Sequence record: NC_049813.1
Origin: Escherichia phage vB_EcoS-12210I
Strand: one strand, 5' to 3'
DNA length: 44,219 bases
The translations under genes and the position numbers were made by a program. Position 1 is the stretch's first letter, and each line of letters starts with the position of its first letter. The notes under the pieces are model-generated. The model had not been told where the DNA came from, ran no database searches, and saw nothing but the letters and a program-made list of their open reading frames with translations. Below, one piece after another: positions 622 to 41,172 of the stretch.

Positions 622-651
622 ATTTAACCTCGTTCGTAGTTGATGGGGGTA

Positions 652-697
652 ATCATACTCCACCTTTTAATTTTTTATTTAGCAATTCGTGCTATTT
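652..697 (-). promoter_or_regulatory. Promoter-like module copy a: 20-bp element 678-697, 20-bp spacer, TATGAT hexamer 652-657 (gene sense)
   Basis: Element AAATAGCACGAATTGCTAAA in gene sense; drives the ERF-like gene. Confidence 0.55.
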
Positions 698-2540: not shown

Positions 2541-2560
2541 AAATAGCACTAATTGCTAAA
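2541..2560 (+). promoter_or_regulatory. Promoter-like element copy b
   Basis: AAATAGCACTAATTGCTAAA followed 20 bp later by TATTAA. Confidence 0.5.
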
Positions 2561-2637
2561 GACATTCTGATAATTTCATTTATTAACTCAGGGAGCGAGG
2601 TTTTTACTTTACTTTTTGGATGGCAATTTTGTTTAAG

Positions 2638-3081: not shown

Positions 3082-3730
3082 AATGAATATCAAGCCATTT
3101 AAAGATACCAACGTTGCCATGATGAGCACCAAAGAGATCGCGGGGTTAACTGGTAAAGAACATAATAAGGTAATTCGTGATGCCAAGGAAATGATCAATG
3201 ATTTGATACATTATAACAACTCCTCATACTTAAGGAGTGAGGATTATCAAGTACTTACAGATAATTTAGGCTATACATCAGAGATTTTACTTAACAAGGA
3301 ACTTACAGAAACGCTAATAACTGGCTACAGCGTCATTCTTCGTCACAGAGTTATCCGTCGACTTCATGAGCTTGAGGCGTTAGTTAAAAAACAAGCAGAA
3401 GTAATCAGCCAGATGGTAAGCATTAATGAACTTAAAGAGGTTCGAATGATGCTTGGTGTGGCTAATGCGCAGAATGCACACCTGAGCCAGCGCATTGTTG
3501 CAGAGCAAAGAATAAATGAGATCTTACTCATGGATAAGAGTACCGATGAAAAACTAGACATGCTGGCTTGTGAGGCTCGCCAGTGTTGGGCTAGTCGTTC
3601 TGATGAGATGGAGGAAAGATTTAAGTATGAAGCCCAATGCTTCGCCCTTAAAGAAAAGAATGATGCGCTGACTGGATTGATTGAGAATAATCTCGGAATT
3701 GACATTAAGCTGCTGCTGGAAAAGAAATAG
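3071..3730 (+). CDS. Rha-family phage regulatory protein (putative)
   Basis: N-terminal MSTKEIAGLTGKEHNKVIRDAKEM resembles the Rha/pRha motif; coiled-coil-like C-terminus. Confidence 0.5.
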   Translation: MAVKMNIKPFKDTNVAMMSTKEIAGLTGKEHNKVIRDAKEMINDLIHYNNSSYLRSEDYQVLTDNLGYTSEILLNKELTETLITGYSVILRHRVIRRLHELEALVKKQAEVISQMVSINELKEVRMMLGVANAQNAHLSQRIVAEQRINEILLMDKSTDEKLDMLACEARQCWASRSDEMEERFKYEAQCFALKEKNDALTGLIENNLGIDIKLLLEKK

Positions 3731-3786
3731 CACTAATTGCTAAACACTGATCGCAAGGATGCGATACTATTACTCCATCGAAACGA
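3725..3786 (+). promoter_or_regulatory. Promoter-like module copy c: element 3725-3744, TACTAT 3765-3770, start region CATCGAAACGA 3776-3786
   Basis: Full module geometry; overlaps the stop of the Rha-like gene. Confidence 0.6.
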
Positions 3787-3805
3787 AATTACCAAGGAAT
3801 ACAAA

Positions 3806-4036
3806 ATGAATAACTTCATCAAATCAGCAATCATCGCAGCAGCAGTAATCATGGCAGTTGGTTGTTCTTCTGGTCCTCGTCCTGATGGTTGGTGTGCAAC
3901 GTCCTCAAACGGCGTGTGCGTAGCTAAATGGAAAGGTGGCGTAGTTGTTCCGGCTGGTGAAATTGACATTCGCTACGATGGAATTAAAGGCTCCAGTGGC
4001 TCCGTTCGTGATTATGGCTCTAAGGAGTGGAATTAA
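3806..4036 (+). CDS. cor: Cor-like lipoprotein (putative receptor-blocking superinfection exclusion), 76 aa
   Basis: Signal peptide with lipobox (IMAVGC); small size; near tail genes as in T1/phi80/N15; ATG at 3806. Confidence 0.55.
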
Positions 4037-7900: not shown

Positions 7901-8410
7901 CTGGTAAGCTCCACCATTAACAGAAAGGTCAATTGCATACTCGCAGGTTGTCCCGTTCAGGTCACCGTTACTCTCTTGCTTAACCAGTCTGGGCCAATAT
8001 AGCTTTACACGAATCGCTGATAGCTGATTATTGTTAACCGCAATGATGTGCGGGGTATCGTTTTTGATTTCCCTTGATACCTGAATTTCTGAGTTGGCAC
8101 CATCAAGGCCAGCGATATAGTCCTGATACTGCGTGCCAGCACGGAACTCAGCGCGAACACCTTCATAGTTGTAACTACCATCCTGATTTTGTACCGGAAC
8201 GTCAGCAAGGTATAAATCCTTCATTGAGAAGTTTGAATCCACCTCTCCGTCAGCAACCGCAAGCAACACCTTAACCTTGTTTAATGAAATAAGGTTGTCT
8301 TCCTGCTCAACTGGTTGATGCTGCTTCTGGCTACCACCTTTAGCACCATAAATCTTAATATCTTCAGCCATATCACAAAGCCTCATGTTTGTTTTGATCA
8401 TTTGTGCCAT
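5000..8410 (-). CDS. Central tail fibre / host specificity protein (lambda J-like), 1136 aa
   Basis: Size and position after I/K/L/M-like genes. Confidence 0.75.
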   Translation of the reverse strand: MAQMIKTNMRLCDMAEDIKIYGAKGGSQKQHQPVEQEDNLISLNKVKVLLAVADGEVDSNFSMKDLYLADVPVQNQDGSYNYEGVRAEFRAGTQYQDYIAGLDGANSEIQVSREIKNDTPHIIAVNNNQLSAIRVKLYWPRLVKQESNGDLNGTTCEYAIDLSVNGGAYQEYTRGVANGKTTTGYDRSIRVNLPAEFDSALVRIRKITPDSTSSTLVNGMQITTYQEVIDAKFRYPLTALVYVEFGSDLFPNGIPTISIKKRWKLIQVPTNYDPETRTYSGTWNGLFKMAWSNNPAWVLYDLVTNRRYGLDQRELGVEIDKWGLYEAAQFCDQMVPDGKGGLEPRYLCDMVVQNKAEAYTLIRDICSIFRGLTFYDGEKIGVVVDKPRNPSYIFTNDNVVNGLFSRTFASDKSLYTTANVQFDDVENNYQQDVEPVFELEATRRFGFNPVDLTAIGCTRRSEANRRGRWLLKTNLRSETISFTTGLEGMIPMIGEVIAVNDAAWSSNYQLNLSGRIESVQGLQVFTPFKVDAAPGDRILLNKPDGSPEARTIASVSEDGMTINLNTAFSFVAQPDTVFAIDKDNLALQQYVVTGIQKADSDGSDSFQYTITAVEYDPNKYDEIDYGVNIVDRPTSIVEPDRLSPPENLTVSSYSKVVQGLSVETMVIGWDKAPYAKTYNVQWRKENGNWINVPRTASAEVDIEGIYAGIYDVRVRSVSDTENVSAWSDIVTVSLTGKIGRPSAPTVITASTDEVFGIRVKWGFPEGSGDTAYTELQQVPDNGDGTYNPDNASLLTLLPYPAYEYWHTPIQPGKVIWYRARLIDRIGNTSDWSNFARGMSTDDANIINDYIKVDIEGSEGFKYLEQNAIQKNQDIQNQAESILQNALANDTDVRRMTKENGKRKAEYVQAVNLIADETQARVEALTQLKAQIDDEVVASITEVQTALATETEARTTADTALSARLGENEAALNQKLDAFSNATSTGVQYGISLGLKYNGQTYSSGMSMELVGTGGNVRSQFIFDANRFAISNGIGSGSGQWQLPFVVENGNVIIQSAVIGDGSITNAKIGDFIQSSNYVAGSTGWRIDKSGNAEIRGKLYANSGEFAFNGINNTVQINGNGITVNLPGGGRVVVGTF

Positions 8411-14882: not shown

Positions 14883-14915
14883 TTAATTAATCTCTCATTT
14901 CGTTTCGATGAGTTA

Positions 14916-14961
14916 ACTATACAGGAAGATTGGATTAACTCTTTAGCAAAAAGTGCCATGC
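14916..14961 (-). promoter_or_regulatory. Promoter-like module copy d (variant element) with TATAGT hexamer
   Basis: Element 14942-14961, hexamer 14916-14921, start region CATCGAAACGA downstream. Confidence 0.5.
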
Positions 14962-14992: not shown

Positions 14993-15649
14993 TTAAACTT
15001 TAGCTGCCACGGAGGACAGTCGACCACGAATGGATACCGCCATGGATACCGTTTCGATTTCGTTGACACCAATGGCAGGGATGTCATTGAAAGAGATAGT
15101 GCCGGACTGCAAGCGCATTTCCTGAGCGCGAGGTACGAACAGACGAATCGCAACAACCTGGCCAGACTCATCGTATTTACGCAGAACCGGATAGACCGGG
15201 TTGGTGTACTCGTGAGCAAAGGTGAAGGTGTTTGTTACCGCAGATTTATAAGTCGGAATCTGCTGTTCGCGTTCGTCAGAAAGGCACTGGAAGTTAACAA
15301 ACTGCTGTTCGCCGCCGTCAGTAGATACGTCCTGAACACACGGGACTTCGATCCATGAATTAATCTTAACAACCTCACCAGTTAAGCCAGCAGGGAACTT
15401 AGTGGCGTCGGAGGTATCAATACCTTCAACTGTTACCGAAGTGCCAGAAACTTCAGTTACTCGCACCTGTTTGTCGCTAAGTAGGGTTGAGCTGGAGGCG
15501 GTAAACAGAAGGTAGTCACCCTTAGCCAGGCCAGATGCGCTAGATACGGTTAAAACTGGTTTAGTTGCGTTAGAGATTTTAGTTACGTTAATTGGAGTTC
15601 CGCGAGTTCCTTCTACGAAGACCTGCGTGCCATTTGATAAATGAGCCAT
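14993..15649 (-). CDS. Major tail protein
   Basis: 218 aa immediately upstream of G/GT. Confidence 0.7.
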   Translation of the reverse strand: MAHLSNGTQVFVEGTRGTPINVTKISNATKPVLTVSSASGLAKGDYLLFTASSSTLLSDKQVRVTEVSGTSVTVEGIDTSDATKFPAGLTGEVVKINSWIEVPCVQDVSTDGGEQQFVNFQCLSDEREQQIPTYKSAVTNTFTFAHEYTNPVYPVLRKYDESGQVVAIRLFVPRAQEMRLQSGTISFNDIPAIGVNEIETVSMAVSIRGRLSSVAAKV

Positions 15650-18704: not shown

Positions 18705-19214
18705 TTAAGCTGCAACAGTTGAGTCTGCGGATTGAATAAGCTGAACTTCAACTAGTGCGCCATCAACGCTTAGGTCTTGCGGGTCTGTGCCCGTTTTTTT
18801 GATGTAACCACCAGCAAATGTAAAACCAGTCTCCCAAGTAGAACCTGCCGCTTCTGCAACAACAACGCCACTCGCGTTTACGAAAACCTTGCCACCAAAA
18901 GCTGGCGCAGCCGCTAGATTTGTACGAACCCAGATTCGACCATGAGTCATTACGTTAACCGCTTCATTTACGCGAGCTGTGCCATCTGGAGTCTCGTAAT
19001 GAGATTTAACAACAACACCATAAGGTTTAACTGGCGAGCCAGTTACAGCTGGGAGTCCAACAACCTTGTGACCATCTACAGGCTGAGCGGATGTAACGCC
19101 AACAAAAGTGCCAACCGGAATTGGTGCTGCACCGCCAACCACACAAGCACCGTCGATGTTATAGAGCGAAGTATCAGAAATCATACCAGCCAGTGCTACG
19201 GAACGAATTGCCAT
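18705..19214 (-). CDS. Putative head decoration / structural protein
   Basis: 169 aa Gly/Val/Ala-rich, between scaffold and capsid genes. Confidence 0.4.
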   Translation of the reverse strand: MAIRSVALAGMISDTSLYNIDGACVVGGAAPIPVGTFVGVTSAQPVDGHKVVGLPAVTGSPVKPYGVVVKSHYETPDGTARVNEAVNVMTHGRIWVRTNLAAAPAFGGKVFVNASGVVVAEAAGSTWETGFTFAGGYIKKTGTDPQDLSVDGALVEVQLIQSADSTVAA

Positions 19215-24738: not shown

Positions 24739-24816
24739 TGGCGCTCCGCACTGGATTCGAACCAGTAACCTACGACTTAGAAGGTCGTTGCTACTATCCT
24801 ATTGAGCTAGCAGAGC
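24739..24816 (-). tRNA. tRNA-Arg (anticodon UCU), CCA encoded
   Basis: Manual cloverleaf: acceptor GCTCTGC/GCGGAGC (one G-U), T arm ACTGG-TTCGAAT-CCAGT, anticodon stem ACGAC/GTCGT with loop CUUCUAA, 5-nt variable loop; D stem weak. Confidence 0.8.
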
Positions 24817-25533: not shown

Positions 25534-25566
25534 TTTCTCTATCTCTCTAGTTGTGTTGATATGGTG

Positions 25567-25612
25567 ATTATATGCCATCCATGGCGACTGCGTTGAGCAA
25601 TTCGTGCTATTT
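25567..25612 (-). promoter_or_regulatory. Promoter-like module copy e: element 25593-25612, TATAAT 25567-25572
   Basis: Element and hexamer with 20-bp spacer. Confidence 0.55.
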
Positions 25613-25750
25613 ATAGAATGACTTAACAAAAGCCTCTGGCGTCACACCTTGTTTGTAAGGCTTAATTAAATCCTTAATGATGAACCGGTTGAATGTTTTC
25701 ATATCAAAGACCAGTCTTTCACATGCGATTACGTATTCAGTGAAGCTCAT
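25607..25750 (-). CDS. Hypothetical small protein, 47 aa
   Basis: GGGAGGAG RBS; ATGA overlap with upstream ORF; below the track length cutoff. Confidence 0.4.
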   Translation of the reverse strand: MSFTEYVIACERLVFDMKTFNRFIIKDLIKPYKQGVTPEAFVKSFYK

Positions 25751-25872
25751 TGTTTCTCCTCCCGTTGCATCCAAATTTGCGCAAGCTCGTAGTAAGCCAT
25801 CACCTCTTCGCTAGTTTTAGCTTCGTCCTGCATTCGCTTGCACCACTCTGCTGGGCTTTCTTGTGCTTCCAT
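25747..25872 (-). CDS. Hypothetical small protein, 41 aa
   Basis: AAGGTGA RBS; ATGA coupling to the next ORF. Confidence 0.35.
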   Translation of the reverse strand: MEAQESPAEWCKRMQDEAKTSEEVMAYYELAQIWMQREEKQ

Positions 25873-25923
25873 GATGAATCACCTTGCTTAAATTATCGTT
25901 CGTTAGAATGCGTTTTAGGCGCG

Positions 25924-26367
25924 TTAAATCTTATTCAATTGCTCAAGAATTTCGTATGCTAGCTCTCTGGCCTGCTCTTCGGTTAAGTGAATGGTGTGAA
26001 CCTGTGGCTCTTCGCGCATCCCGCACGCCTGGGCAATGATGAATGTTGCGTAGCCGTCAAAGTGGTTGGCCTGGAGCTTTGGCTCTGATTGGGAGAATCG
26101 AAGTGACTCAGCTCTCGCCTTGCACTGACTCATCATCATGTCAAATGTTGGATCTTTATCCATCTCTTTAACCTCTTTCCATTGCCAAAGTATACCATTT
26201 AATGGAACTCGTTCTCCAACCTTAAACTTTGGCTCACCATCATTAGAAGGGCAATCGTTGGTGTCTTTGGTTATAATAAACTCCCCATCTTCAGAGGCGA
26301 GGCCATATACTACCTGACCAATAGAAACTGAATCAGTGTAACTTCCTGTGCAAATAAACTTAGTCAT
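25924..26367 (-). CDS. Hypothetical protein, 147 aa
   Basis: ORF with GAGATGAGG leader/RBS downstream of a promoter-like module. Confidence 0.5.
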   Translation of the reverse strand: MTKFICTGSYTDSVSIGQVVYGLASEDGEFIITKDTNDCPSNDGEPKFKVGERVPLNGILWQWKEVKEMDKDPTFDMMMSQCKARAESLRFSQSEPKLQANHFDGYATFIIAQACGMREEPQVHTIHLTEEQARELAYEILEQLNKI

Positions 26368-26398
26368 TATTGTAACCTCATCTCGTTTCGGTAGGGTA

Positions 26399-26444
26399 AC
26401 TATAATAAATTACCCCAATACTGTTTTAGGAATTCGTGCTATTT
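26399..26444 (-). promoter_or_regulatory. Promoter-like module copy f: element 26425-26444, TATAGT 26399-26404
   Basis: Element and hexamer with 20-bp spacer. Confidence 0.55.
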
Positions 26445-26586
26445 AGCATTCTTTGACAACTTCACACCACTTAATAGTTCCCCCAAGAACCCTCTGCTGA
26501 TCAAATGCTTTATGAAACCCCTCGCACACTCGAACATGCTTAACGCTATTAAACTTACCAGTGTAGTACGTATGGATGTAAATCAT
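26443..26586 (-). CDS. Hypothetical small protein, 47 aa
   Basis: ATGA overlap with upstream gene; 3-prime end overlaps promoter element f. Confidence 0.3.
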   Translation of the reverse strand: MIYIHTYYTGKFNSVKHVRVCEGFHKAFDQQRVLGGTIKWCEVVKEC

Positions 26587-26810
26587 TTCTTAGTCGCCTT
26601 ATCCAAGTTAGTGAGGTATGCGGCATTAACGATAAGCGCCTCGTACTGGCGTGATGATTCGAAGTCACTGACGTCGAATTGCTGATTATTAATCTGTGCG
26701 CGAATCTCATCTACCGCTTTGCGCTGGCTATCACTTCGTGTTGGCATGAATGAATTAATCATCGACTTCAGTTCTGCTGCTTGCTTGTCTGACAGGTTAA
26801 TAGTAATCAT
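26583..26810 (-). CDS. Hypothetical protein, 75 aa
   Basis: GAGAGGATAG RBS. Confidence 0.45.
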   Translation of the reverse strand: MITINLSDKQAAELKSMINSFMPTRSDSQRKAVDEIRAQINNQQFDVSDFESSRQYEALIVNAAYLTNLDKATKK

Positions 26811-26839
26811 TTTCTATCCTCTCGCTTTGTGTGAACCAA

Positions 26840-26885
26840 CTATAACAAAACCCGCCGTAGCTGGTTAGGCAAAAAGTGCTATTTA
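26840..26885 (-). promoter_or_regulatory. Promoter-like module copy g: element 26866-26885, TATAGT 26840-26845
   Basis: Element and hexamer with 20-bp spacer. Confidence 0.5.
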
Positions 26886-27139
26886 CCAACCTGAATTGAT
26901 TTAGACGATTCATGAATCATCTTCTGCCCGTAAAGCTCTTTAGCCCTCCGCAATGAATCAATCGAGTCATTAAGATCAGTAAGGTAATCTTTGTGACCAC
27001 GCAGACCAGTGCAAAGCATCTTCTTTATTGCATGCTGCGTTGCTGGGTCAGATACACCAAACGCATCAAGAACGCGATAAACATCCACTGTTGTTACCGT
27101 GCCATCAATGCCAATAATTTCACGATTGTACTTACTCAT
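26879..27139 (-). CDS. Hypothetical protein, 86 aa
   Basis: ORF in early block. Confidence 0.45.
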   Translation of the reverse strand: MSKYNREIIGIDGTVTTVDVYRVLDAFGVSDPATQHAIKKMLCTGLRGHKDYLTDLNDSIDSLRRAKELYGQKMIHESSKSIQVGK

Positions 27140-27289
27140 ATATCAATCCTCGTTATTGTGCCGCCATGCGTCTTAAGCATGAGCTTTGCGTACTTTTCGT
27201 CTACATAGTGCAGGAGCATATCAATACCCCTGCTGCTGAATTTATGTTCGTATATCGTCACTTAACTTACACTCGCGTGGTTGGTGTGG

Positions 27290-27337
27290 GGATTATACCA
27301 GTCAGGATGAATCCCATTTTAGCAAAAAGTGCTATCT
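27290..27337 (-). promoter_or_regulatory. Promoter-like module copy h: element 27318-27337, TATAAT 27290-27295
   Basis: Element and hexamer with 22-bp spacer. Confidence 0.5.
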
Positions 27338-27550
27338 GATAACCCCGTACTTAACCGCGTTGGCGAGGGTAACATACTGCTTAGCCGTCAGCGTTGAGTG
27401 AAAGGTGAAGATTCCGGCCTGGACACCCTTAACCAGCGATTCAGGCTTGATCCCTGAAATGTTGATGATCCCGAGACCGCCAACAGTGCGAAGAACCACT
27501 CCGGAAACCACACAAAACTCGACACCATTACTATTCGTATATACCTGCAT
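27332..27550 (-). CDS. Hypothetical protein, 72 aa
   Basis: ORF in early block. Confidence 0.45.
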   Translation of the reverse strand: MQVYTNSNGVEFCVVSGVVLRTVGGLGIINISGIKPESLVKGVQAGIFTFHSTLTAKQYVTLANAVKYGVIR

Positions 27551-27563
27551 TATAATTTCTCCT

Positions 27564-27773
27564 TCATTGCCTCTCCGCCTCGTCTGCTGCCAGGATTAAT
27601 GCCGCCGCCAGTTTGCGGGCTTGATCAGAGCTGTATCGCATAATCGCCTGGCTGTCTCCATTGTCGTCAGGATCGAAATCCAGATACACAAACGTTCCTT
27701 GAGCGCCGCTACCTATACTTACCTCGGCCTGATCAAAGCACTGATCTTCTACTCGAACAGCTTCCATATTCAT
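27564..27773 (-). CDS. Small strongly acidic protein, about 69 aa (starts MNMEAV)
   Basis: AGAGGAAA RBS; about 14 Asp/Glu versus 5 Lys/Arg. Confidence 0.5.
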   Translation of the reverse strand: MNMEAVRVEDQCFDQAEVSIGSGAQGTFVYLDFDPDDNGDSQAIMRYSSDQARKLAAALILAADEAERQ

Positions 27774-27797
27774 TTCCTCTTTGTTTTCGATGGGGTA

Positions 27798-27843
27798 ATC
27801 ATAGCTGACTACCCGATCCATTGTTTAGCAATTCGTGCTATTT
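27798..27843 (-). promoter_or_regulatory. Promoter-like module copy i: element 27824-27843, TATGAT 27798-27803
   Basis: Element and hexamer with 20-bp spacer; CATCGAAAACA start region. Confidence 0.55.
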
Positions 27844-29761: not shown

Positions 29762-29809
29762 GAATAGCGCTTTTTGCTAAAGACATTATGAGTTAGCGAG
29801 GCTATAGTT
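29762..29809 (+). promoter_or_regulatory. Promoter-like module copy j: element 29762-29781, TATAGT 29804-29809
   Basis: Element and hexamer with 22-bp spacer; start region CATCAAAAACGAGG. Confidence 0.5.
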
Positions 29810-29835
29810 AGCTCATCAAAAACGAGGAGATAGAA

Positions 29836-30015
29836 ATGAAGATTGATAAAGATGAACTTCGTAACGAATGCGCACTGATTGGGCTTAACGAAGATTACAC
29901 AGACCTTGTGTTGCGCGGAAAGTTGGACATTAACTTGGCTAAGCAATTCCAGTCAGAGGATGAATTCCTGTGCTGTGATGGACTTGGATGCGTTGAATGT
30001 TTACCATTTATTTGA
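29836..30015 (+). CDS. Hypothetical Cys-rich small protein, 59 aa
   Basis: GAGGAG RBS; C-terminal CCDGLGCVEC; below track cutoff. Confidence 0.45.
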   Translation: MKIDKDELRNECALIGLNEDYTDLVLRGKLDINLAKQFQSEDEFLCCDGLGCVECLPFI

Positions 30016-30265: not shown

Positions 30266-30426
30266 TGCTATTACCATCTGAGATAAATTATTTCGATCTT
30301 GAGGTCATAAGTGCCTACAGCGGCAAGGGTTGGCCTTGCGGTGACTGGTTTAATGAGGACCTACTGGATTCTCACGAGATTATGCTCAAGGCGATAGAAA
30401 AAGCACGAAATAGCACGAATTGCTAA
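30262..30426 (+). CDS. Hypothetical small protein, 54 aa
   Basis: ATGA-type overlap with upstream gene; 3-prime end overlaps promoter element k. Confidence 0.3.
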   Translation: MMLLPSEINYFDLEVISAYSGKGWPCGDWFNEDLLDSHEIMLKAIEKARNSTNC

Positions 30427-30469
30427 AACGAAATCGCAAGGATGCGGTATTATCTTTACATCGAAACGG
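30408..30469 (+). promoter_or_regulatory. Promoter-like module copy k: element 30408-30427, TATTAT 30448-30453, start region CATCGAAACGG 30459-30469
   Basis: Full module geometry. Confidence 0.6.
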
Positions 30470-30479
30470 GAGATAAGAA

Positions 30480-30644
30480 ATGTTCGACAACTTTCATGAC
30501 GCGATAGAAGAGGCATTGTACCGCGCGTCACTTGATGGGAAGATTTACGGTTTAGTTCAGAAGGTTGACAAGATTGTTGTGCGAATCGTGCGCAAATCAG
30601 TACCTAACAAATTCATGTGGACAACTAAGAGAGTAACAAAATGA
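30480..30644 (+). CDS. Hypothetical small protein, 54 aa
   Basis: GGGAGATAAG RBS; ATGA overlap with next gene. Confidence 0.4.
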   Translation: MFDNFHDAIEEALYRASLDGKIYGLVQKVDKIVVRIVRKSVPNKFMWTTKRVTK

Positions 30645-30994
30645 CAACTACGATTACCAAAAACTGGATCAGTAACGAAAACGTATTATACAAAGCCAGA
30701 GTAAAAGATGGCGTAGAGCAAATCAAGAAAGATGGAAAATGGATTAACATTGAAGAGCGCGGCAAGTACATCAAGACAAAGACCATTTACTGCACAAATG
30801 TTAATCATCGATCATCCATTCGTAAATACTTCACTGAAGGGAAGAGATATCAAGTAGATCTCCATGCTGGACTTGGTCAGTTCGCTGGATACATTTACGA
30901 TAAAGAGGGCAGCGCATGGCAGCTATATCGTGACGAAGATGTTGGCTTTGTTACAGTTTGCGGCGACTACCGCTTTGAGGCTCAATACCGATAA
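30641..30994 (+). CDS. Hypothetical protein, 117 aa
   Basis: ORF coupled to upstream gene. Confidence 0.5.
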   Translation: MTTTITKNWISNENVLYKARVKDGVEQIKKDGKWINIEERGKYIKTKTIYCTNVNHRSSIRKYFTEGKRYQVDLHAGLGQFAGYIYDKEGSAWQLYRDEDVGFVTVCGDYRFEAQYR

Positions 30995-31068
30995 TAAGCA
31001 CAAATTGACAATGAATTATAAGCGGTCGTTGATATAATGGCCGCTCAGAAACAATACGGAGACAAGTA

Positions 31069-32652
31069 ATGTTCGATTTCAACGAAGATAAACTATCTGT
31101 TGAACAGGTTATGGCAATTGCTGCCGCAGAAAACCTCCCGCCCCTGCGCGTCGCCATTAATGCTAATGGCTATCGCCAGTCTCAATCATTCTGGAAAGCA
31201 CCAGTCGAGATTGATGCAGCTAATGACAAGTATCCAGTAATCTCACTAGGTAATGACATTGATGTTGTTGGTAAGCTGTCAGCTAATATTGCCCGTTCTG
31301 TTCAGTTCCCTGAGTCGTCAGCTTACATGCACTTCCTGGGGTGTATTTCCGCTGCAATGCTGGGTCGATTTACTGTTGAGTATCACGGAACGCAGCAACC
31401 GACTTCGCTGTACGTCGTAACGAGTCAGCCACCATCGACGGGTAAATCAGCAATCAACTCACTTTCAATTGCTCCAATGATTGCTGAGACTGAGCGACTA
31501 AATAAAGTGAGAAAGCGTGAGCGCAAGAAAATTATGGCAAAACTATCTGAATTATCCAAAGAGATGAAGCAGGAAAAATCTCCGTCAGAGATGGCTTCAC
31601 TTTTTGAGGAGAAAGAGGAACTAGAGGAAAAACTCGAGAAACTATGTGATATCGTTTTCCCTGTGTCAGATACCACACCGGAAGGACTTGCGCGAATAAA
31701 CAACCGCCAGGGCAGCTTTGCTGTAATATCAGATGAAGCAACCAGCGTCAACTCACTGCTTGGTATGACCTATGGTGATGGTTCGAAGAAAACGAACAGC
31801 GAGCTTGTGCTGAAGGCCTGGGATGCTGGTAACGTGTCAATTGCGCGTGCTAACGCAGAAAACAATATGAGCTTTGTTGCTATGGGTTGCATCTCTGTAA
31901 TTGCACAGGATGAAACAATCAATGCGATCATGAACGCTGGCGCGCGTGGTATCGGTGTATCTGAACGTTTCCTGCTTGTACGTGAAAAGTCATTCCTGGG
32001 CGAGCGTGTGTTTGTTGATGAAAATGGTGAGTCAACTTACGAACCGATAGATGGTGAGCTTAAGGCTAACTACTTCCGTCTGGTTCATGAAATCATGAAT
32101 GAACAAGAAGTTAAGTTGACAGTTAGTAATTCAGCAATGAAATATCTCAACCGCGCGCGTCAGGAGATGGAACCGCACCTTGCTGACGGCGGGAAGTATT
32201 CACACACAATGTTGCGAGGCGCGTTGGGTAAGTTCGATAAGCAGGCAATCAGGATTGCGGCGGTTCTTCACACTGTGCGTAACTGGTTCAACCCAAATGG
32301 CGGTAGCCCTCAGAAGTCGAGAGAAATTGAGCTTGATACAATGCAGGAAGCTGTAATTATGTTCCAGGAACTTAGCAAGACTTATTTGTCATCCGCTAAC
32401 GCCGCGGGTCACGCTGGCGACAATGCAGAGATGAATAAGCTGATTGATATCCTGATTAAGCAAGGCAAAAACGGGAAAGGAGTAGTAGGTATTCGTTCGC
32501 TATATGAAGCGGCTCGCAAGGTTAAGCCGTTCGAGGCTCAAGCGGGAGTAATGACGAAGATTAAAGACCACTTGCTGCCAATGCTTGATGAGAAAAACTA
32601 CACGTGCCTGATTGGTGATAAAGTTTACATTAATCCACGACTATTGGGGTGA
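31069..32652 (+). CDS. P-loop NTPase, putative replication-associated protein, 527 aa
   Basis: Walker A-like QPPSTGKS and Walker B-like AVISDEA; termini shared with the 140-aa paralogue. Confidence 0.55.
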   Translation: MFDFNEDKLSVEQVMAIAAAENLPPLRVAINANGYRQSQSFWKAPVEIDAANDKYPVISLGNDIDVVGKLSANIARSVQFPESSAYMHFLGCISAAMLGRFTVEYHGTQQPTSLYVVTSQPPSTGKSAINSLSIAPMIAETERLNKVRKRERKKIMAKLSELSKEMKQEKSPSEMASLFEEKEELEEKLEKLCDIVFPVSDTTPEGLARINNRQGSFAVISDEATSVNSLLGMTYGDGSKKTNSELVLKAWDAGNVSIARANAENNMSFVAMGCISVIAQDETINAIMNAGARGIGVSERFLLVREKSFLGERVFVDENGESTYEPIDGELKANYFRLVHEIMNEQEVKLTVSNSAMKYLNRARQEMEPHLADGGKYSHTMLRGALGKFDKQAIRIAAVLHTVRNWFNPNGGSPQKSREIELDTMQEAVIMFQELSKTYLSSANAAGHAGDNAEMNKLIDILIKQGKNGKGVVGIRSLYEAARKVKPFEAQAGVMTKIKDHLLPMLDEKNYTCLIGDKVYINPRLLG

Positions 32653-32655
32653 TGA

Positions 32656-32991
32656 GTGTTTATTTTGGATTTGTACCGCTTCTGCGAGTCGTATTCATAC
32701 TTCACGCGCCAGCATTTGGCGCGATTCATCTACCAACATAAGGACTCTCAGAGATTCAGCAAAGCAGCAGGTTTGTCGCATAGGGAATTTTGCAGCGCTG
32801 CTTCAAAGGAGTTTTGCGCAAAGATGTTAACTGCTGGATACATTGATGGTAAGTGTGGTGAGTTTGTTAGCAAGGGTAGCCTGAAGAGGCCGTTTGATTT
32901 CAATTTCGATGCGCTTAGCGGGTATGAGAGCAAGTACATAAAAGAGATGATGAACATAGGAACAATGACTGACGAGGAGTTATTTTCTTAA
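32656..32991 (+). CDS. Hypothetical protein, 111 aa (GTG start)
   Basis: ORF begins at GTG right after the upstream stop; could start at a later ATG. Confidence 0.35.
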   Translation: MFILDLYRFCESYSYFTRQHLARFIYQHKDSQRFSKAAGLSHREFCSAASKEFCAKMLTAGYIDGKCGEFVSKGSLKRPFDFNFDALSGYESKYIKEMMNIGTMTDEELFS

Positions 32992-33051
32992 ATAGCACTT
33001 TTTGTTAAAAGCCCCTTGTGGGCTTTTGTTATTATTAATTCATCGAAACGA
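32990..33051 (+). promoter_or_regulatory. Promoter-like module copy l: element 32990-33009, TATTAT 33030-33035, start region CATCGAAACGA 33041-33051
   Basis: Full module geometry; a hairpin (33009-33025) sits inside the spacer. Confidence 0.55.
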
Positions 33052-33072
33052 TAGACAGGAAAGGAAAACAAA

Positions 33073-33150
33073 ATGGTTAAGTTCTTCGCTGGTATGCTGA
33101 CTGCTGTTGCAATCATGGATAACGTAGCTATTTATCTTGGCGTGTACTGA
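33073..33150 (+). CDS. Small hydrophobic peptide, 25 aa
   Basis: AGGAAAGGAAAA RBS; MVKFFAGMLTAVAIMDNVAIYLGVY. Confidence 0.35.
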   Translation: MVKFFAGMLTAVAIMDNVAIYLGVY

Positions 33151-33209
33151 TAGCACAAATTGCTAAATAAAAGAAAAACAAAAAGAGCATAGTTACTTCA
33201 TAGAAAACA
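33150..33209 (+). promoter_or_regulatory. Promoter-like module copy m: element 33150-33167, CATAGT 33188-33193, start region CATAGAAAACA
   Basis: Module geometry with a variant start region. Confidence 0.5.
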
Positions 33210-33223
33210 AAGAGGATTTTAAA

Positions 33224-33316
33224 ATGGATAATATTATGAAGATGAGCCAAGTTAATGGAAAGGCCCATCCATTAGCTATGCGGTACGATATCGACGTTGA
33301 AGTTAGAATTAAGTAA
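33224..33316 (+). CDS. Hypothetical small protein, 30 aa
   Basis: AAGAGGA RBS; followed by a terminator. Confidence 0.3.
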   Translation: MDNIMKMSQVNGKAHPLAMRYDIDVEVRIK

Positions 33317-34704: not shown

Positions 34705-34745
34705 TTTGTGCTTCCTTGTTTAGCTCATCTCGTTTCGATGTGGTG

Positions 34746-34790
34746 ATTATGCCGCATTTCTACGGCATTACTTAGGCAAAAAGTGCTATT
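34746..34790 (-). promoter_or_regulatory. Promoter-like module copy n: element 34772-34790, CATAAT 34746-34751
   Basis: Element and hexamer with 20-bp spacer; start region CATCGAAACGA. Confidence 0.55.
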
Positions 34791-35919
34791 AACTAAACAT
34801 TTCGGGACGGCAAGTGAATCGACCAATCTCTCCGAATTTAGGGCTGTAGATGATTACCGACGCCTGGCGATAAGAGCGATAACCACCGTTGGCACTGTAC
34901 GCATCCTTGCAACCAAGCTGACCATGAGACTCATCGATACCTAAGTTACCCTCTGTAATCGTTTGATGGTGGTAATGGCCACTATGAGTGTAAACATACT
35001 CAGACTCACCAAAAGCCTTACGATGGTCACGAGCCAGTGTTGATAGTCTGGTATCAGGCTTTTTGAGTTCATGTCCATGACAGTAACCAAGCAGCGTCTT
35101 TCCAAACTGCGTTACGTGAAGCGCTGCAGGAGATGCGTCAACATTAACTCGAGGCTCATCCATATAGAACGCCGCCATTGCAGCACGAAGCCAAATCATA
35201 CCTGAGAGGTCGTGGTTTCCAGGGATAATCTGAACCTCAATCTCAGCGTGCTTATCAAGCATCCGGCTAATTGCTCTGCGGGTTGCTCGTACTGCTACGT
35301 AAACCAATTTGTGATAACGGCTATCTTGGTCAAGAATATGACGACTCGTTGGAGTTACCGCTTCCATTCCGTCAGAGTGAAGGAAGTCACCACCAATCAG
35401 CAATACAGCCTTCTTTGAGTTAGGAGCCTTTGCAACCGCGTAATCAAAGTAGCTATTAAGAATGCGCTCTGCAATTTCAGTGCTGTAGTTCTCACCACAC
35501 TCGGCATGGTGAGCCATTGCGCCAATGTGTAAGTCGAATACGGGGTACAGGCTTAAGGTATCCTCAAATGATGACTTACTGAGCGGCTTTGGTTTCTCGC
35601 GTGGCAACTCATCAGTTAGGGCCTGAATTGCCTGAAGCATCATTTCTTCTTGCTTCTCTTTGTCGATGTCAGATTTAACCCACTGTTGCTTAATCTCACC
35701 GTCGGCACCAATTAAGCTAGACACACCTTTGACAGCGTAACCTTGAGGAATTAGGTTGCTAACATCACGGCCATGCCCCTCACCTTGCTTAGCTAATTTA
35801 CTACGACGCAATTCAACGTTGCGAATGTTCATTCCGTACTTCTCTGCGATTGCCTTGTTTGTCATGCCATTAGCCAGCTCTTCGCGCAGTTCTTCGTTGG
35901 TAATTTTTGCAGTTGCCAT
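34789..35919 (-). CDS. Calcineurin-like metallophosphoesterase with N-terminal HTH domain
   Basis: Motifs DLH, GDFLHSDG, GNHD, GHxH; N-terminal HTH-like MTNKAIAEKYGMNIRNV. Confidence 0.65.
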   Translation of the reverse strand: MATAKITNEELREELANGMTNKAIAEKYGMNIRNVELRRSKLAKQGEGHGRDVSNLIPQGYAVKGVSSLIGADGEIKQQWVKSDIDKEKQEEMMLQAIQALTDELPREKPKPLSKSSFEDTLSLYPVFDLHIGAMAHHAECGENYSTEIAERILNSYFDYAVAKAPNSKKAVLLIGGDFLHSDGMEAVTPTSRHILDQDSRYHKLVYVAVRATRRAISRMLDKHAEIEVQIIPGNHDLSGMIWLRAAMAAFYMDEPRVNVDASPAALHVTQFGKTLLGYCHGHELKKPDTRLSTLARDHRKAFGESEYVYTHSGHYHHQTITEGNLGIDESHGQLGCKDAYSANGGYRSYRQASVIIYSPKFGEIGRFTCRPEMFS

Positions 35920-37041: not shown

Positions 37042-37077
37042 TTTGTTTCTCTCTCTTCGTTTCGTTTCGATGAGGTG

Positions 37078-37123
37078 ATAATACACCACCCCACCGATTC
37101 ATCTTTAGCAATTAGTGCTATTT
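37078..37123 (-). promoter_or_regulatory. Promoter-like module copy o: element 37104-37123, TATTAT 37078-37083
   Basis: Element and hexamer with 20-bp spacer; start region CATCGAAACGAAACGA. Confidence 0.6.
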
Positions 37124-39528: not shown

Positions 39529-39629
39529 ATCTAAATTCCTATAAAAATTGTCTTGTAGCGTTTAATTGAGTACAATAATACCATCAAATCAGTATGACTT
39601 TTAACAAAAAATGCTATTGAGGTAATGAA

Positions 39630-40103
39630 ATGAATGCAGTAGACAAGCGAACCATTAACGGCAATAACGGAACCATCCGCACTGAAGATAAAAAGCAGCG
39701 AAAACGACCTTCAGGTTACTACGTTTTAAAAGATGAAGTAAGAGCGGGTTTACGTGCGCGGCTGGAAATTGTTCTTGATTTCTTCGGCACAAAGGCAAAT
39801 ATGGCAAAGCAATTAAAGGTAACACCACAGGCTGTAGAAGAATGGTTTAAGCGCGGCATGATGTCGGCGCGTGGTGCTCAGCTTTCGCACAACTACTATA
39901 AGCGAAATGGAGAAGGTTTTCGCGCAACATTCTGCCGACCAGACTTGCAATTCGACGGCAACGGCAAGCCGCTGACACTTCGGTGCAAAAAACGCCACAT
40001 GCTTCGCGTGGTTACCGAGGCTGAATTAGCCACCAAGCCAGAGTGTCGGTCCTGGCGCAAAATTAAGGCCGCTAACGAAGCAGCACGGAAAGCTAAAGAG
40101 TAA
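39630..40103 (+). CDS. Putative HTH DNA-binding protein, 157 aa
   Basis: GAGG RBS; HTH-like KANMAKQLKVTPQAVEEWFKRG. Confidence 0.45.
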   Translation: MNAVDKRTINGNNGTIRTEDKKQRKRPSGYYVLKDEVRAGLRARLEIVLDFFGTKANMAKQLKVTPQAVEEWFKRGMMSARGAQLSHNYYKRNGEGFRATFCRPDLQFDGNGKPLTLRCKKRHMLRVVTEAELATKPECRSWRKIKAANEAARKAKE

Positions 40104-40106
40104 GGG

Positions 40107-40152
40107 AAATAGCACTAATTGATAAACAGTGGCGCTATGCATTGTGTATAGT
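40107..40152 (+). promoter_or_regulatory. Promoter-like module copy p: element 40107-40126, TATAGT 40147-40152
   Basis: Element and hexamer with 20-bp spacer. Confidence 0.55.
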
Positions 40153-40178
40153 GCCTTTATTGTTTATGGAGGGTGTAT

Positions 40179-41105
40179 ATGAATTATCATGACAAAAATG
40201 AAGTGATAGCTAAAATGAAAGGGATGTGGGGTGAGTTCTACTTGTCTCATTTGGGATGGACCAGAGAAAATCTTAGCAAGAAGCATGGGCCATGCCCGAA
40301 TTGTGGAGGTCGTGATAGGTTTAGATTCACTGATGAGTTAGGTCAAGAAAAGGGAAATGGAGCAGCAATATGCAACCAGTGCGGCAATGATTCTGGTGTT
40401 GGTTGGGTCATGAAGTGTTCCGGAATGAGTTATAGTGAAACAATAGATACGCTTGGTGATTGGCTAAATCTCGTTCCAGTAGAGGTTATATCAAAAGCAA
40501 ACAAAAGAGCATCTCGTACATCACCATACAAAATGGGCGCTCAGATTGACCATGAAAGATGCTTAGAGATAATGGAAAGGACGGAGAGGGTAGAATCAAC
40601 TCCACTCAGCATATATGAGGGTATCTATAGCGAGTTTGGCTTTGATGTTGGCAGAACAAAATCAGGCGAAATAATACACGCAATACCGTGTTTTATGGCT
40701 TATAGTGACGGCATATCGGAAGAAATGTGCAATGTAATGTTTATAAATGAAGATGGAGATGTTAGTTATGCTGCAAAAGATTACACTCGCCAATCTGTCG
40801 CTGTTATTGGTGCCTTTAAAAGTGATGAGTACGCTTATCTTGTGGATAATTGGATTGATGGTATTCGTGTTCATCTTGCTACTGGTAACCGCTGTGTACT
40901 TGTTTGCCACTCTAGCTACAATATGGAGATGGTTGCTTATGCGCTTAGGAACCACAAGCTGAGAGTGGCTTGTACTCGCCACGATTTTGATTTACTCGCC
41001 GTTGCTGATGATCGCAATCTTGATGTTGTAATGCCAAATGATGATAATTTTTTCAAGTCAGGAATAAGAAAGCGCATATACAAGGCAAGCGAATTACTAG
41101 ACTAA
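40179..41105 (+). CDS. DNA primase (zinc-ribbon type)
   Basis: GGAGGG RBS; CPNCGG...C..C zinc-binding motif near the N-terminus. Confidence 0.65.
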   Translation: MNYHDKNEVIAKMKGMWGEFYLSHLGWTRENLSKKHGPCPNCGGRDRFRFTDELGQEKGNGAAICNQCGNDSGVGWVMKCSGMSYSETIDTLGDWLNLVPVEVISKANKRASRTSPYKMGAQIDHERCLEIMERTERVESTPLSIYEGIYSEFGFDVGRTKSGEIIHAIPCFMAYSDGISEEMCNVMFINEDGDVSYAAKDYTRQSVAVIGAFKSDEYAYLVDNWIDGIRVHLATGNRCVLVCHSSYNMEMVAYALRNHKLRVACTRHDFDLLAVADDRNLDVVMPNDDNFFKSGIRKRIYKASELLD

Positions 41106-41127
41106 CCTCCTTCGGGAGGTTTTTTTA
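41105..41127 (+). terminator. Rho-independent terminator after primase
   Basis: ACCTCC-TTCG-GGAGGT followed by T7. Confidence 0.75.
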
Positions 41128-41138
41128 TGCCTGAAAGA

Positions 41139-41172
41139 TGATACAATCCAACTTATCAATTAGTGCTATTTT
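41139..41172 (+). promoter_or_regulatory. Candidate tail-fibre promoter (TGATACAAT extended -10 at 41139-41147) overlapped at +1 by an inverted copy of the 20-bp element (41153-41172)
   Basis: Element copy q is in the opposite orientation to all other plus-gene copies and lies downstream of the -10. Confidence 0.4.

Follow-up and report, generated by a model that had tools for sequence, protein, structure and literature searches.

Repeated modules of a T1-like coliphage carry marbox-like elements in the class II position: candidate MarA/SoxS/Rob-type promoters

In Escherichia coli, the class II promoters that depend on MarA, SoxS or Rob (micF, the paradigm, as well as lpxC P2, lpxL P1 and rfaY P1) carry a forward-oriented marbox that overlaps the -35 and has its centre between -36 and -55 (~-41.5). 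The published consensus of the E. coli marbox is a 15-mer, GCAHWWWWTGYYAAA, and its 20-mer form reads AYnGCACnnWnnRYYAAAYn. On micF, Rob reads G-47, A-45, G-38, T-37 and the A-35/A-34 pairs. Hosts among the Enterobacteriaceae share activators of the MarA/SoxS/Rob type, and RamA binds the same box. Rob is expressed constitutively at a high level and, unless inducers are present, is reportedly for the most part sequestered and inactive.

Repeats in T1-like phages have reportedly been noted since the T1 genome paper of 2004. A 21-nt direct repeat, aaATAGCACnnnTTGnTAAAA, was described in 2024 in TLS and noted in T1, Rtp and Rogue1; its function was left open, with a stoperator, an enhancer site or an UP element as suggestions (PMC11447400). 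Only three canonical promoters were found in TLS by the same authors (PMC11447400), and the SU57 paper offers generic promoter prediction only. The searchable literature yielded no paper that ties T1-like phages to the marbox or to Rob, MarA or SoxS, nor any data on binding, transcription or mapped start sites in these phages.

The window analysed here, 44,219 nucleotides of Escherichia phage vB_EcoS-12210I (NC_049813.1), is the complete genome of a T1-like coliphage (Drexlerviridae, Veterinaerplatzvirus). The original prediction listed 17 positions of a 20-bp element and placed it in a promoter-like module that lacks a -35. Relaxed matching recovered all 17 and added two degenerate copies, 39598-39617(-) and 30993-31012(+), giving 19 copies in the genome (Table 1). 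A search with AAATAGCACnAATTGCTAAA allowing up to 3 mismatches returned 13 matches, against 0.05 expected from shuffles. The TLS repeat corresponds to this element, orientation included; it precedes start codons by ~76 nt and has the same GAA/TTT/AAA subtypes (PMC11447400). The repeat is therefore already published for T1-like phages, a fact that the original prediction missed, and the marbox identification is the new part; the TLS paper makes no mention of a marbox match, an 18-bp -10 register, a conserved start or hairpins (PMC11447400).

The modules follow one order: the element, a -10 hexamer, six nucleotides, a conserved A as the predicted start (in ATCGAAACGA), a short leader, a Shine-Dalgarno sequence and ATG. 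The hexamer stands at a rigid distance from the element in 16-17 of the 19 copies. Counted from the element as first defined, the distance to the TAtaaT-like hexamer is 20 nt (19-21 nt in three copies). The 20-bp marbox frame used below begins 2 nt into that element, and in this frame 15 of the 18 copies having a -10 show a spacing of 18 bp; it is 17 bp once (39617) and 19 bp once (29764), and in the copy at 695 the marbox lies ~19 bp from the start A. The spacing is tighter than the 20-22 bp originally given for it. As described, TTGCTA is separated from the -10 by 22 bp and a conserved -35 is lacking; the bases at -35 to -30 are AAAAYn, in keeping with the weak or absent -35 of class II marbox promoters. 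The conserved start region was likewise recovered, with the predicted +1 A six nucleotides past the hexamer and usually inside ATCGAAACGA. The leaders measure 18-39 nt and end in a Shine-Dalgarno sequence and ATG in 15 of 18 copies. Most copies do face a downstream gene, but the copies at 2543(+) and 32992(+) have no ORF of at least 30 aa within 90 nt. The copy at 41150-41169(-) lacks a -10 and points at a terminator, as had been noted, and this arrangement of orphan marbox and terminator is conserved in Rtp (33762) and T1 (34902). Our analysis supports two general points of the original prediction, namely that these -35-less promoter modules need something besides sigma-70 region 4 reading a -35 hexamer and that no phage RNA polymerase is involved.

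Table 1. Positions of the marbox-like elements and associated features in the window; starts are predicted.
Module (strand)	Marbox	-10 hexamer	Start	Downstream gene	Remarks
635..697 (-)	676-695	TATGAT 652-657	~644-645	starts at 621, wraps window end, 222 aa	gene syntenic with Rtp Erf-like annealing protein
2541..2603 (+)	2543-2562, perfect	TATTAA 2581-2586, weak		next ORF of at least 30 aa at 2752	atypical leader without ATCGAAACGA
3725..3787 (+)	3727-3746	TACTAT 3765-3770	A 3777 (ATCGAAACGA)	3806-4036	
14899..14961 (-)	14940-14959	TATAGT 14916-14921	14909	14882-14634	within tail gene block, directly past terminator
25550..25612 (-)	25591-25610	TATAAT 25567-25572	A 25560	25533-25330	
26382..26444 (-)	26423-26442	TATAGT 26399-26404	26392	26367-25924	hairpin GGGGTAA/TTACCC(T) on both sides of -10; z -2.0
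26822..26884 (-)	26863-26882	TGT-TATAGT 26839-26844, extended	26832	26810-26583	
27275..27337 (-)	27316-27335	TGG-TATAAT 27292-27297, extended	27285		
27781..27843 (-)	27822-27841	TATGAT 27798-27803	A 27791	27773-27564	element as first defined perfect; strong hairpin over -10, -16.2 kcal/mol, z -4.75
29762..29825 (+)	29764-29783, GCGC variant	TATAGT 29803-29808	29815	29836-30015	19-bp spacing; fold z -3.1
30408..30470 (+)	30410-30429	TATTAT 30448-30453	30460	30480-30644	spacer hairpin ATCGCAaggaTGCGGT
30993..31055 (+), degenerate	TAAGCACAAATTGACAATGA 30995-31014	TATAAT 31033-31038	~31045	31069-32652, helicase-like	18-bp spacing; orthologue Rtp_43850m
32990..33052 (+)	32992-33011	TATTAT 33030-33035, T-rich	33042		spacer terminator hairpin 33006-33028, its tail being the -10 TATTAT
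33148..33210 (+)	33150-33169	CATAGT 33188-33193	33200	33224-33316, tiny	
34729..34791 (-)	34770-34789	CATAAT 34746-34751	34739	34704-34528	spacer hairpin; precedes lysis block (Rtp synteny); fold z -3.3
37061..37123 (-)	37102-37121	TATTAT 37078-37083	37071	37041-36847	14-bp hairpin centred on -10, -19.3 kcal/mol, z -4.9
39558..39619 (-), weak	ATAGCATTTTTTGTTAAAAG 39598-39617	TGG-TATTAT 39575-39580		39528-37534, helicase	17-bp spacing
40107..40169 (+)	40109-40128	TATAGT 40147-40152	40159	40179-41105, primase	terminator hairpin 40131-40155 enclosing -10; z -3.8
41150..41171 (-)	orphan	none			faces bidirectional terminator 41104-41121

By sequence, the element reproduces the E. coli marbox, the site of MarA, SoxS and Rob, almost perfectly, and it sits in the class II position, a match that the original prediction had missed. 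Scanning the genome with GCAHWWWWTGYYAAA gave 8 perfect sites where 0.07 would be expected in random sequence, and 16 with one mismatch where 1.2 would be; the same scan of lambda gave 0 and 2, respectively. The per-position profile of the phage copies tracks the consensus over an asymmetric 20-bp box, its degenerate positions included. The boxes are in the forward orientation and centred ~-40.5 to -41 relative to the predicted +1, which is the class II geometry. The same 18 bp separates the micF marbox, ACAGCACTGAATGTCAAAAC, from its -10, TAGAAT.

Across 61 modules of four phages, the bases contacted by Rob were found at G-47 in 61/61, A-45 in 61/61, G-38 in 59/61, Y-37 in 58/61, A-35 in 57/61 and A-34 in 61/61, counts that are partly circular because the modules were chosen by no more than 2 mismatches to the 15 specified bases of ATAGCACNNNTTGCTAAA together with A-11/T-7. 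Outside these selection criteria lie the N/W positions of the consensus, which vary among the phage modules (GAA, TTT, TAA, AAA), the +1 A, and G-14, which is present in 72% of modules (full TG in about 44%); copies with a TG extended -10 could fire without an activator. In the 61 modules, C-44 and A-34/A-33 lack symmetric counterparts, and C-37 is replaced by T in 30% of copies whereas its mirror position, G-47, is constant. Thus, the inner inverted repeat TAGCA-N5-TGCTA does exist, but the asymmetry of conservation means that the element is not a dimer-type palindrome; the pattern fits a monomer. The phage box is also tighter than the host consensus, with A-50, T-49, A-48, T-40 and T-39 nearly invariant, and this extra constraint could be explained by a binder more specific than the host activators.

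Modules of class II geometry number 14-18 each in T1, TLS, Rtp, Klebsiella phage KLPPOU149 and the present genome, and lambda has none. The box occurs in 1072 phage records, nearly all with Enterobacteriaceae hosts. More than a thousand genomes of T1-like phages of Enterobacteriaceae, the Klebsiella Webervirus phages included, have been sequenced.

A consensus scan of the genome gave no excess of canonical -35/-10 promoters (39 found, 39.6 expected). Upstream of terS, the late operon has a box-less promoter consisting of a bare TGGTATAAT, so the phage does use extended -10 promoters. Among all six-frame ORFs, phmmer and a small profile of MarA, SoxS and the Rob N-terminus detected no MarA/SoxS/Rob homologue; the matches were at noise level (best E 0.36), and a phage AraC-type protein was rejected as the activator. 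A phage protein that is structurally MarA-like without sequence similarity may be the binder. The helix-turn-helix (HTH) candidates originally proposed fared poorly in Pfam comparisons: the product of 39630 is a weak Cro-like single HTH, that of 2752 a weak winged helix, that of 3071 Rha and that of 34789 a metallophosphatase, with no two-HTH AraC-type protein among them. A host factor and a phage DNA-binding factor had both been offered as possibilities, and the evidence favours the former. The longest complementarity of the leader to 16S rRNA was a 7-mer, which is the chance level. Of 74 modules, 13 have GATC (Dam) sites, which cluster at -29 to -24; this is only about double the rate expected.

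Because its marboxes are near-perfect and placed as in host promoters, the phage probably relies on host MarA, SoxS or Rob to express most of its early and middle genes. We assign a probability of about 0.65 to the reading of the modules as class II promoters of the MarA/SoxS/Rob type; that the activator binds and activates, where exactly +1 lies and which paralogue acts are predictions, made from the observed sequence match, orientation, -10 register, family conservation, lack of a detectable AraC homologue and lack of a canonical-promoter excess. A host two-HTH AraC-family activator, as a monomer, would occupy the asymmetric marbox (ATAGCACnnnTTGYTAAAnn, about -50 to -31), stand in for the -35 contact, and touch sigma-70 region 4 and the alpha C-terminal domain. 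In the unstressed cell the most likely candidate is Rob, which is constitutively abundant; under stress the role would fall to MarA or SoxS, and in Klebsiella to RamA. Host RNA polymerase would then open the -10 hexamer 18 bp downstream, often with an extended TG, and start at the A of ATCGAAACGA, yielding a short, A/C-rich, unstructured leader with a Shine-Dalgarno sequence. Given the reported sequestration of Rob, the good growth of T1-like phages in plain medium counts against this reading. Nor are classical T1-resistant mutants known to map to rob, marA or soxS; such mutants would be masked by the redundancy of the three activators.

Many copies, a subset rather than all, have a hairpin over the -10. 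Arms of at least 6 bp were present in 28% of modules, as compared with 3.4% when arms were swapped between copies (p 1e-8). Against dinucleotide-preserving shuffles, 6 of the 18 genome modules fold at z <=-2, with a mean of ~-1.3; the mean of -3.0 from mononucleotide shuffles looks stronger, and we relied on the dinucleotide-preserving and arm-swap tests. Three annotated terminators of T1 lie inside module spacers. The most likely role of the hairpins between the marbox and +1 would be to halt or attenuate transcription coming in from upstream, in which case each module would be a self-contained promoter-terminator-RBS cassette.

The element might instead be read by a phage-encoded DNA-binding protein that activates the promoters or later shuts them off, the marbox likeness being convergent or coincidental; we consider this unlikely. 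Candidates would be the family-conserved Cro-like regulator at 39630-40103 (T1 gp23 / Rtp52 homologue) or an unannotated small early protein. The regulator gene is conserved in T1, TLS, Rtp and the Klebsiella phage and has its own sigma-70-like promoter candidate (39548-39576), and both the short inverted repeat and a conservation stricter than that of host marboxes would suit such a protein. Yet the early genes carry the same module, and nothing else would start them before the phage protein exists. The asymmetric conservation is unlike a dimer site, the HTH match of the regulator is weak and of the single-HTH kind, and a chance match to a ~22-bit consensus in the right orientation and at the right -10 distance is very unlikely. 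That RNA polymerase acts alone, with the element as an UP-like or upstream alpha contact joined to an extended -10, seems to us slightly less probable still. UP elements are A/T tracts, A/T-rich at -59 to -38 without G/C-specific positions, and are read by the alpha C-terminal domains. The invariant G-47, C-46, C-44 and G-38 do not agree with such tracts, and the box reaches as far as -31, within a -35 region that alpha does not bind; on these grounds the identity with an UP element was rejected. An A-rich flank at -52/-51, the frequency of G-14 and the box-less terS promoter would be in line with polymerase acting alone, but the full TG is found in fewer than half of the modules. UP elements were among the suggestions of the TLS authors, as were stoperators (PMC11447400).

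We regard as very improbable the remaining proposal, that the element is mainly a recombination or insulation cassette, or a stoperator-like block, and not an activator site, and is conserved for gene shuffling or for stopping read-through. The fixed 18-bp register to the -10, followed by an RBS and ATG, points to promoter function. Stoperators of the mycobacteriophage L5 type are asymmetric repressor sites scattered in transcribed DNA and accompanied by a phage repressor, and are not known to have a fixed relation to a -10. The fixed register of the element to the -10 and +1 does not fit this type; no repressor or integrase is annotated in related T1-like records. The hairpins over the -10 accord with a cassette, as do the T4-type PeSL cassettes, which act in this manner. 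The ends of homology blocks shared with Rtp lie in or near modules in 11 of 44 cases, against 4.5% expected, and of those shared with EC3a in 1 of 12, figures confounded by the intergenic location of the modules. Recombination at the cassettes would be compatible with the marbox reading rather than an alternative to it.

The marbox reading offers a concrete, testable mechanism for repeats about whose function there were only guesses in 2024 (PMC11447400). If correct, it would explain how host RNA polymerase transcribes phages with almost no canonical promoters. A large, widely isolated phage family would be tied to the regulators of intrinsic multidrug resistance, and better hosts might be found in resistant mar or ramA mutants or in cells exposed to bile. 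The modules would also be a source of compact, near-consensus, activator-dependent promoter-terminator cassettes as tools. The wider proposition, that the T1-like phages of Enterobacteriaceae have most of their early and middle transcription wired to the host Mar/Sox/Rob/RamA stress regulon, is put forward tentatively, as a possibility that we would not yet bet on. Should it hold, phage gene expression would be expected to rise in bile salts, salicylate and oxidants as well as in multidrug-resistant mutants overproducing MarA or RamA, and the promoters would at the same time be mobile, insulated promoter-terminator cassettes by which orphan genes are shuffled.

Among known systems, the modules resemble class II marbox promoters in their 20-bp asymmetric box (GCAC, 7 bp, YYAAA), and micF in the forward box that overlaps the -35 region 18 bp from the -10, with no usable -35. 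The host marbox regulon consists of scattered degenerate sites, whereas this virulent phage has ~17 near-consensus copies in 44 kb, and its modules add to the host class II design a conserved start region and leader and a hairpin between the box and +1. T4 middle promoters similarly combine a good -10 and no -35 with an upstream activator box that substitutes for region 4 binding. The MotA box, however, has its centre near -30 and lies 11-13 bp from the -10, and its use requires phage MotA and AsiA. The analogy to MotA and sigma appropriation drawn in the original prediction fails on this geometry, as the element is centred at ~-41 with 18 bp to the -10 (20 bp in the earlier frame); moreover, the phage box matches a host activator site, and the ten proteins scanned against Pfam included none like MotA or AsiA. 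The PeSLs of the T4-type phages RB49, phi1, PST and nt-1 are repeated intergenic cassettes of ~100 bp that end in a Shine-Dalgarno sequence and ATG, combine a promoter with a stem-loop either between -35 and -10 or over the -10, and are linked to small orphan genes and mosaic junctions. The phage modules share the cassette with promoter, Shine-Dalgarno sequence and start codon, the link to small orphan genes and, in a subset, the stem-loop. Terminator and recombination activities are experimental for PeSLs, whereas the modules are known here from sequence; and where PeSLs have a normal sigma-70 -35/-10 and an A/T-rich upstream region, the phage module has a marbox in place of the -35.

The 20-mer repeat named in the original prediction was recovered in 13 copies at up to 3 mismatches in the window, against 0.05 expected, and looser matching returned all 17 positions listed for it, together with two further degenerate copies (39598–39617 (-) and 30993–31012 (+)). 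A TAtaaT-like hexamer follows 18 of the 19 copies at a nearly constant distance, and a conserved A, the predicted start, stands 6 nt past the hexamer, mostly inside ATCGAAACGA. Fifteen copies continue with a Shine-Dalgarno site and a start codon 18–39 nt beyond the start A. The coordinates of two modules were verified base by base (see table). The copy counts, the layout of hexamer, start and leader, and these checks therefore confirm the observation.

Coordinates of modules, hairpins and neighbouring features in the window
Feature	Coordinates	Strand	Remarks
Module	box 27822–27841; hexamer 27798–27803; start 27791	minus	verified base by base
Module	box 25591–25610; hexamer 25567–25572; start 25560	minus	verified base by base
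Hairpin module	37061–37123		arms flanking/preceding -10
Hairpin module	27781–27843		arms flanking/preceding -10
Hairpin module	40107–40169		arms flanking/preceding -10
Hairpin module	34729–34791		arms flanking/preceding -10
Hairpin module	29762–29825		arms flanking/preceding -10
Hairpin module	26382–26444		arms flanking/preceding -10
Head-tail operon promoter	24461–24453	minus	perfect extended -10 TGGTATAAT, directly after terminator 24496–24479
tRNA-Arg(tct) gene	24739–24816	minus	

The repeated element fits the marbox of E. coli, where the activators MarA, SoxS and Rob, each a monomer with two HTH motifs, bind. The marbox consensus is quoted as GCAHWWWWTGYYAAA in one paper, and in cryo-EM studies the box spans 20 bp and contains an A site, GCAC, and a B site, CAAA. 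The consensus used for our scan is host-derived and independent of phage sequence; GCAHWWWWTGYYAAA matched the window perfectly at 8 sites and with one mismatch at 16, where random sequence of the same composition gave 0.07 and 1.2. In class II promoters the box is in the forward orientation over the -35, with its centre near -41.5, and in the micF promoter of the K-12 genome 18 bp separate the end of the box ACAGCACTGAATGTCAAAAC from the hexamer TAGAAT. The phage modules resemble micF in this respect: measured in the 20-bp marbox frame, which opens 2 nt inside the 20-mer of the original prediction, the box-to-hexamer distance is 18 bp in 15 of the 18 copies having a -10, the departures being one copy with 17 bp, one with 19 bp, and copy 695, with about 19 bp to the start A.

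When numbered from the conserved A, GCAC occupies -47 to -44 and YTAAA -37 to -33. The structure of Rob and RNA polymerase on micF has base contacts at -47G, -45A, -38G, -37T and the -35/-34 pairs. Among 61 modules pooled from four phages, the bases at these positions are G-47 (61/61), A-45 (61/61), G-38 (59/61), Y-37 (58/61), A-35 (57/61) and A-34 (61/61), an invariance that is partly built in because the modules were chosen on such bases, namely by at most 2 mismatches to the 15 specified bases of ATAGCACNNNTTGCTAAA plus A-11/T-7. This selection did not extend to G-14, the +1 A or the variable N/W positions, and the positions that vary in the 61 modules are those left free by the marbox consensus. 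The conservation profile of the box lacks symmetry and so speaks against a dimer on the small inverted repeat within it. By sequence and geometry, the module qualifies as a class II MarA/SoxS/Rob promoter and would function like one, with binding and activation predicted.

The repeat itself is already known from the literature. The re-annotation of TLS (2024, PMC11447400) describes a 21-nt direct repeat, aaATAGCACnnnTTGnTAAAA, in 21 places, oriented with transcription about 76 nt upstream of start codons and falling into GAA, TTT and AAA subtypes; it also states that T1, Rtp and Rogue1 have similar repeats, and reports only three sigma-70-like promoters in TLS. Its authors tentatively suggested stoperators, enhancer sites or UP elements. 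As identities of the module, we rejected the stoperator, the UP element and the MotA-type promoter. A literature search that covered few subscription journals found no publication of the marbox identification, the fixed register, the family-wide count or the hairpin statistic.

Several boxes lie in other settings. Module 2543 (+; 2541–2760 region) has a perfect box and a poor hexamer, TATTAA, without the conserved start, and a gap of about 160 nt separates it from the next ORF of at least 30 aa (at 2752); its transcript may have a long leader or be a small RNA. An orphan marbox without a -10, 41150–41169 (-), faces a bidirectional terminator (41104–41121) between the primase and tail-fibre genes, an arrangement kept in Rtp (33762) and T1 (34902). 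In T1, the box at 8362–8381 lies 15 nt ahead of the terS start codon, and those at 15067–15086 (-) and 18831–18850 (-) are antisense within the structural gene block; all three are outside promoter geometry, so not every box is a promoter.

The genes behind the modules were assigned by synteny with Rtp and T1. Modules precede small orphan early genes and the Erf-like recombinase gene, two helicase genes and the primase gene, a lipoprotein/membrane pair, and a block whose last genes are those for holin, endolysin and spanin; a further module stands before a gene within the tail cluster. A different promoter, TGGTATAAT, serves the head-tail operon, 24 nt ahead of the terS start codon (24429), with no marbox and no -35. 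Thus, the phage has at least two promoter types. About 170 nt upstream of the tRNA-Arg(tct) gene there is also a sigma-70 candidate, TTGCAT (25011–25006), 17 nt, TAACAT (24988–24983), which is a reasonable match.

Complete genomes named "Escherichia phage vB_EcoS-12397V" and siblings are identical to the 44,219-bp window. Its nearest classified relatives are Veterinaerplatzvirus phages, placed in the Braunvirinae, Drexlerviridae (T1-like siphoviruses), and Rtp, EC3a, SU57-like and other coliphages are related to it at 80–90% identity. Modules that differ from the host consensus at no more than 1 position and have a hexamer 17–19 bp downstream number 14 in the window, 18 in T1, 17 in TLS, 15 in Rtp and 17 in Klebsiella phage KLPPOU149; lambda had 0 by the same criteria. 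A 32-nt box sequence, used as a BLAST query, matched 1072 phage records, mainly from Klebsiella (505), Escherichia (353), Shigella, Citrobacter, Enterobacter, Salmonella and Cronobacter, and the majority of the records among the matches listed are 44–52 kb genomes with several matches apiece. The box-hexamer spacers are unrelated across copies and orthologous modules, with box, hexamer and start retained, which is the pattern of selection on function. GATC occurs in the module spacers at about twice the expected frequency, at -29 to -24; its density per kb is 1.4 in the window and 1.6 in Rtp, versus 4.8–6.0 in T1, TLS and the Klebsiella phage.

The activator could be of phage or host origin. 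MarA, SoxS and the Rob N-terminus, searched singly and as a profile against all six-frame ORFs, revealed no homologue in the phage (best E 0.36). As for the HTH proteins proposed as phage factors, the 39630–40103 product, which is conserved family-wide and homologous to T1 gp23 and Rtp52, carries only a weak Cro-like single HTH, and the other candidates proved to be a weak winged helix, a Rha protein and a metallophosphatase. Canonical -35/-10 sites in the window are not above chance (39, with 39.6 expected), so the modules alone could start the small early genes (25.3–27.8 kb) before any phage protein. Rob is reported to be expressed constitutively at a high level. The lack of a phage homologue, the weak HTH of the regulator, the lack of other early promoters and the abundance of Rob therefore lead us to favour a host activator, which would be Rob by default, MarA/SoxS under stress and RamA in Klebsiella. 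The original prediction is partly supported: of its two options the host factor is favoured, and its phage HTH candidates and its loose analogy with MotA promoters were not supported. Within 39548–39619, upstream of the Cro-like regulator gene, a sigma-70-like candidate promoter (TTGTCT, 17 nt, TACAAT; 39548–39576 (+)) overlaps back to back with the weak marbox module of a helicase gene on the opposite strand, which suggests coupled control.

The start A is present in 53 of the 61 modules, and the AAA following it is moderately conserved. The leaders, rich in A and C, finish with Shine-Dalgarno sites of the GAGG type; nothing meaningful was found in their complementarity to 16S rRNA. We read the start region as a probable shared initial transcribed sequence with a putative unstructured leader, which selection, cassette exchange or the two together may have kept.

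Inverted repeats between box and start are found in many modules. Some hairpins are internal to the spacer and have the T-rich hexamer as their tail (e.g. 33006–33028 and 30433–30448), and three author-annotated terminators of T1 are located exactly in module spacers. In other modules the hexamer lies between the arms, whose register is constant with its centre near -12.5 and whose sequences differ between copies with complementarity kept; flanking or preceding repeats occur likewise in T1, TLS and Rtp. Arms of at least 6 bp were found in 28% of modules, versus 3.4% after swapping arms between copies (p 1e-8), and 6 of 18 window modules had a fold z of -2 or below against dinucleotide shuffles (lowest energy, -19.3 kcal/mol). 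The right arm precedes the predicted start, so only transcripts arriving from further upstream would form the hairpin; in such read-through RNA the predicted hairpins have -10 to -20 kcal/mol, and they may act as terminators, attenuators or 3' stabilisers. Ends of window/Rtp homology blocks (at least 200 bp) fall in a module or within 15 nt of one in 11 of 44 cases, versus 4.5% expected, a comparison confounded by intergenic position; this is consistent with cassettes as mosaic junctions, although intergenic position alone could explain part of it. The module is best explained, with a probability of about 0.65, as a class II marbox promoter that depends on a host activator and serves at once as a promoter-terminator cassette. 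The closest precedent for the hairpins is provided by the PeSL (promoter-early stem-loop) cassettes of T4-type phages. Their stem-loop, which lies over the -10 or in the interval from -35 to -10, has been shown to act as a transcription terminator, and the cassettes mediate gene shuffling.
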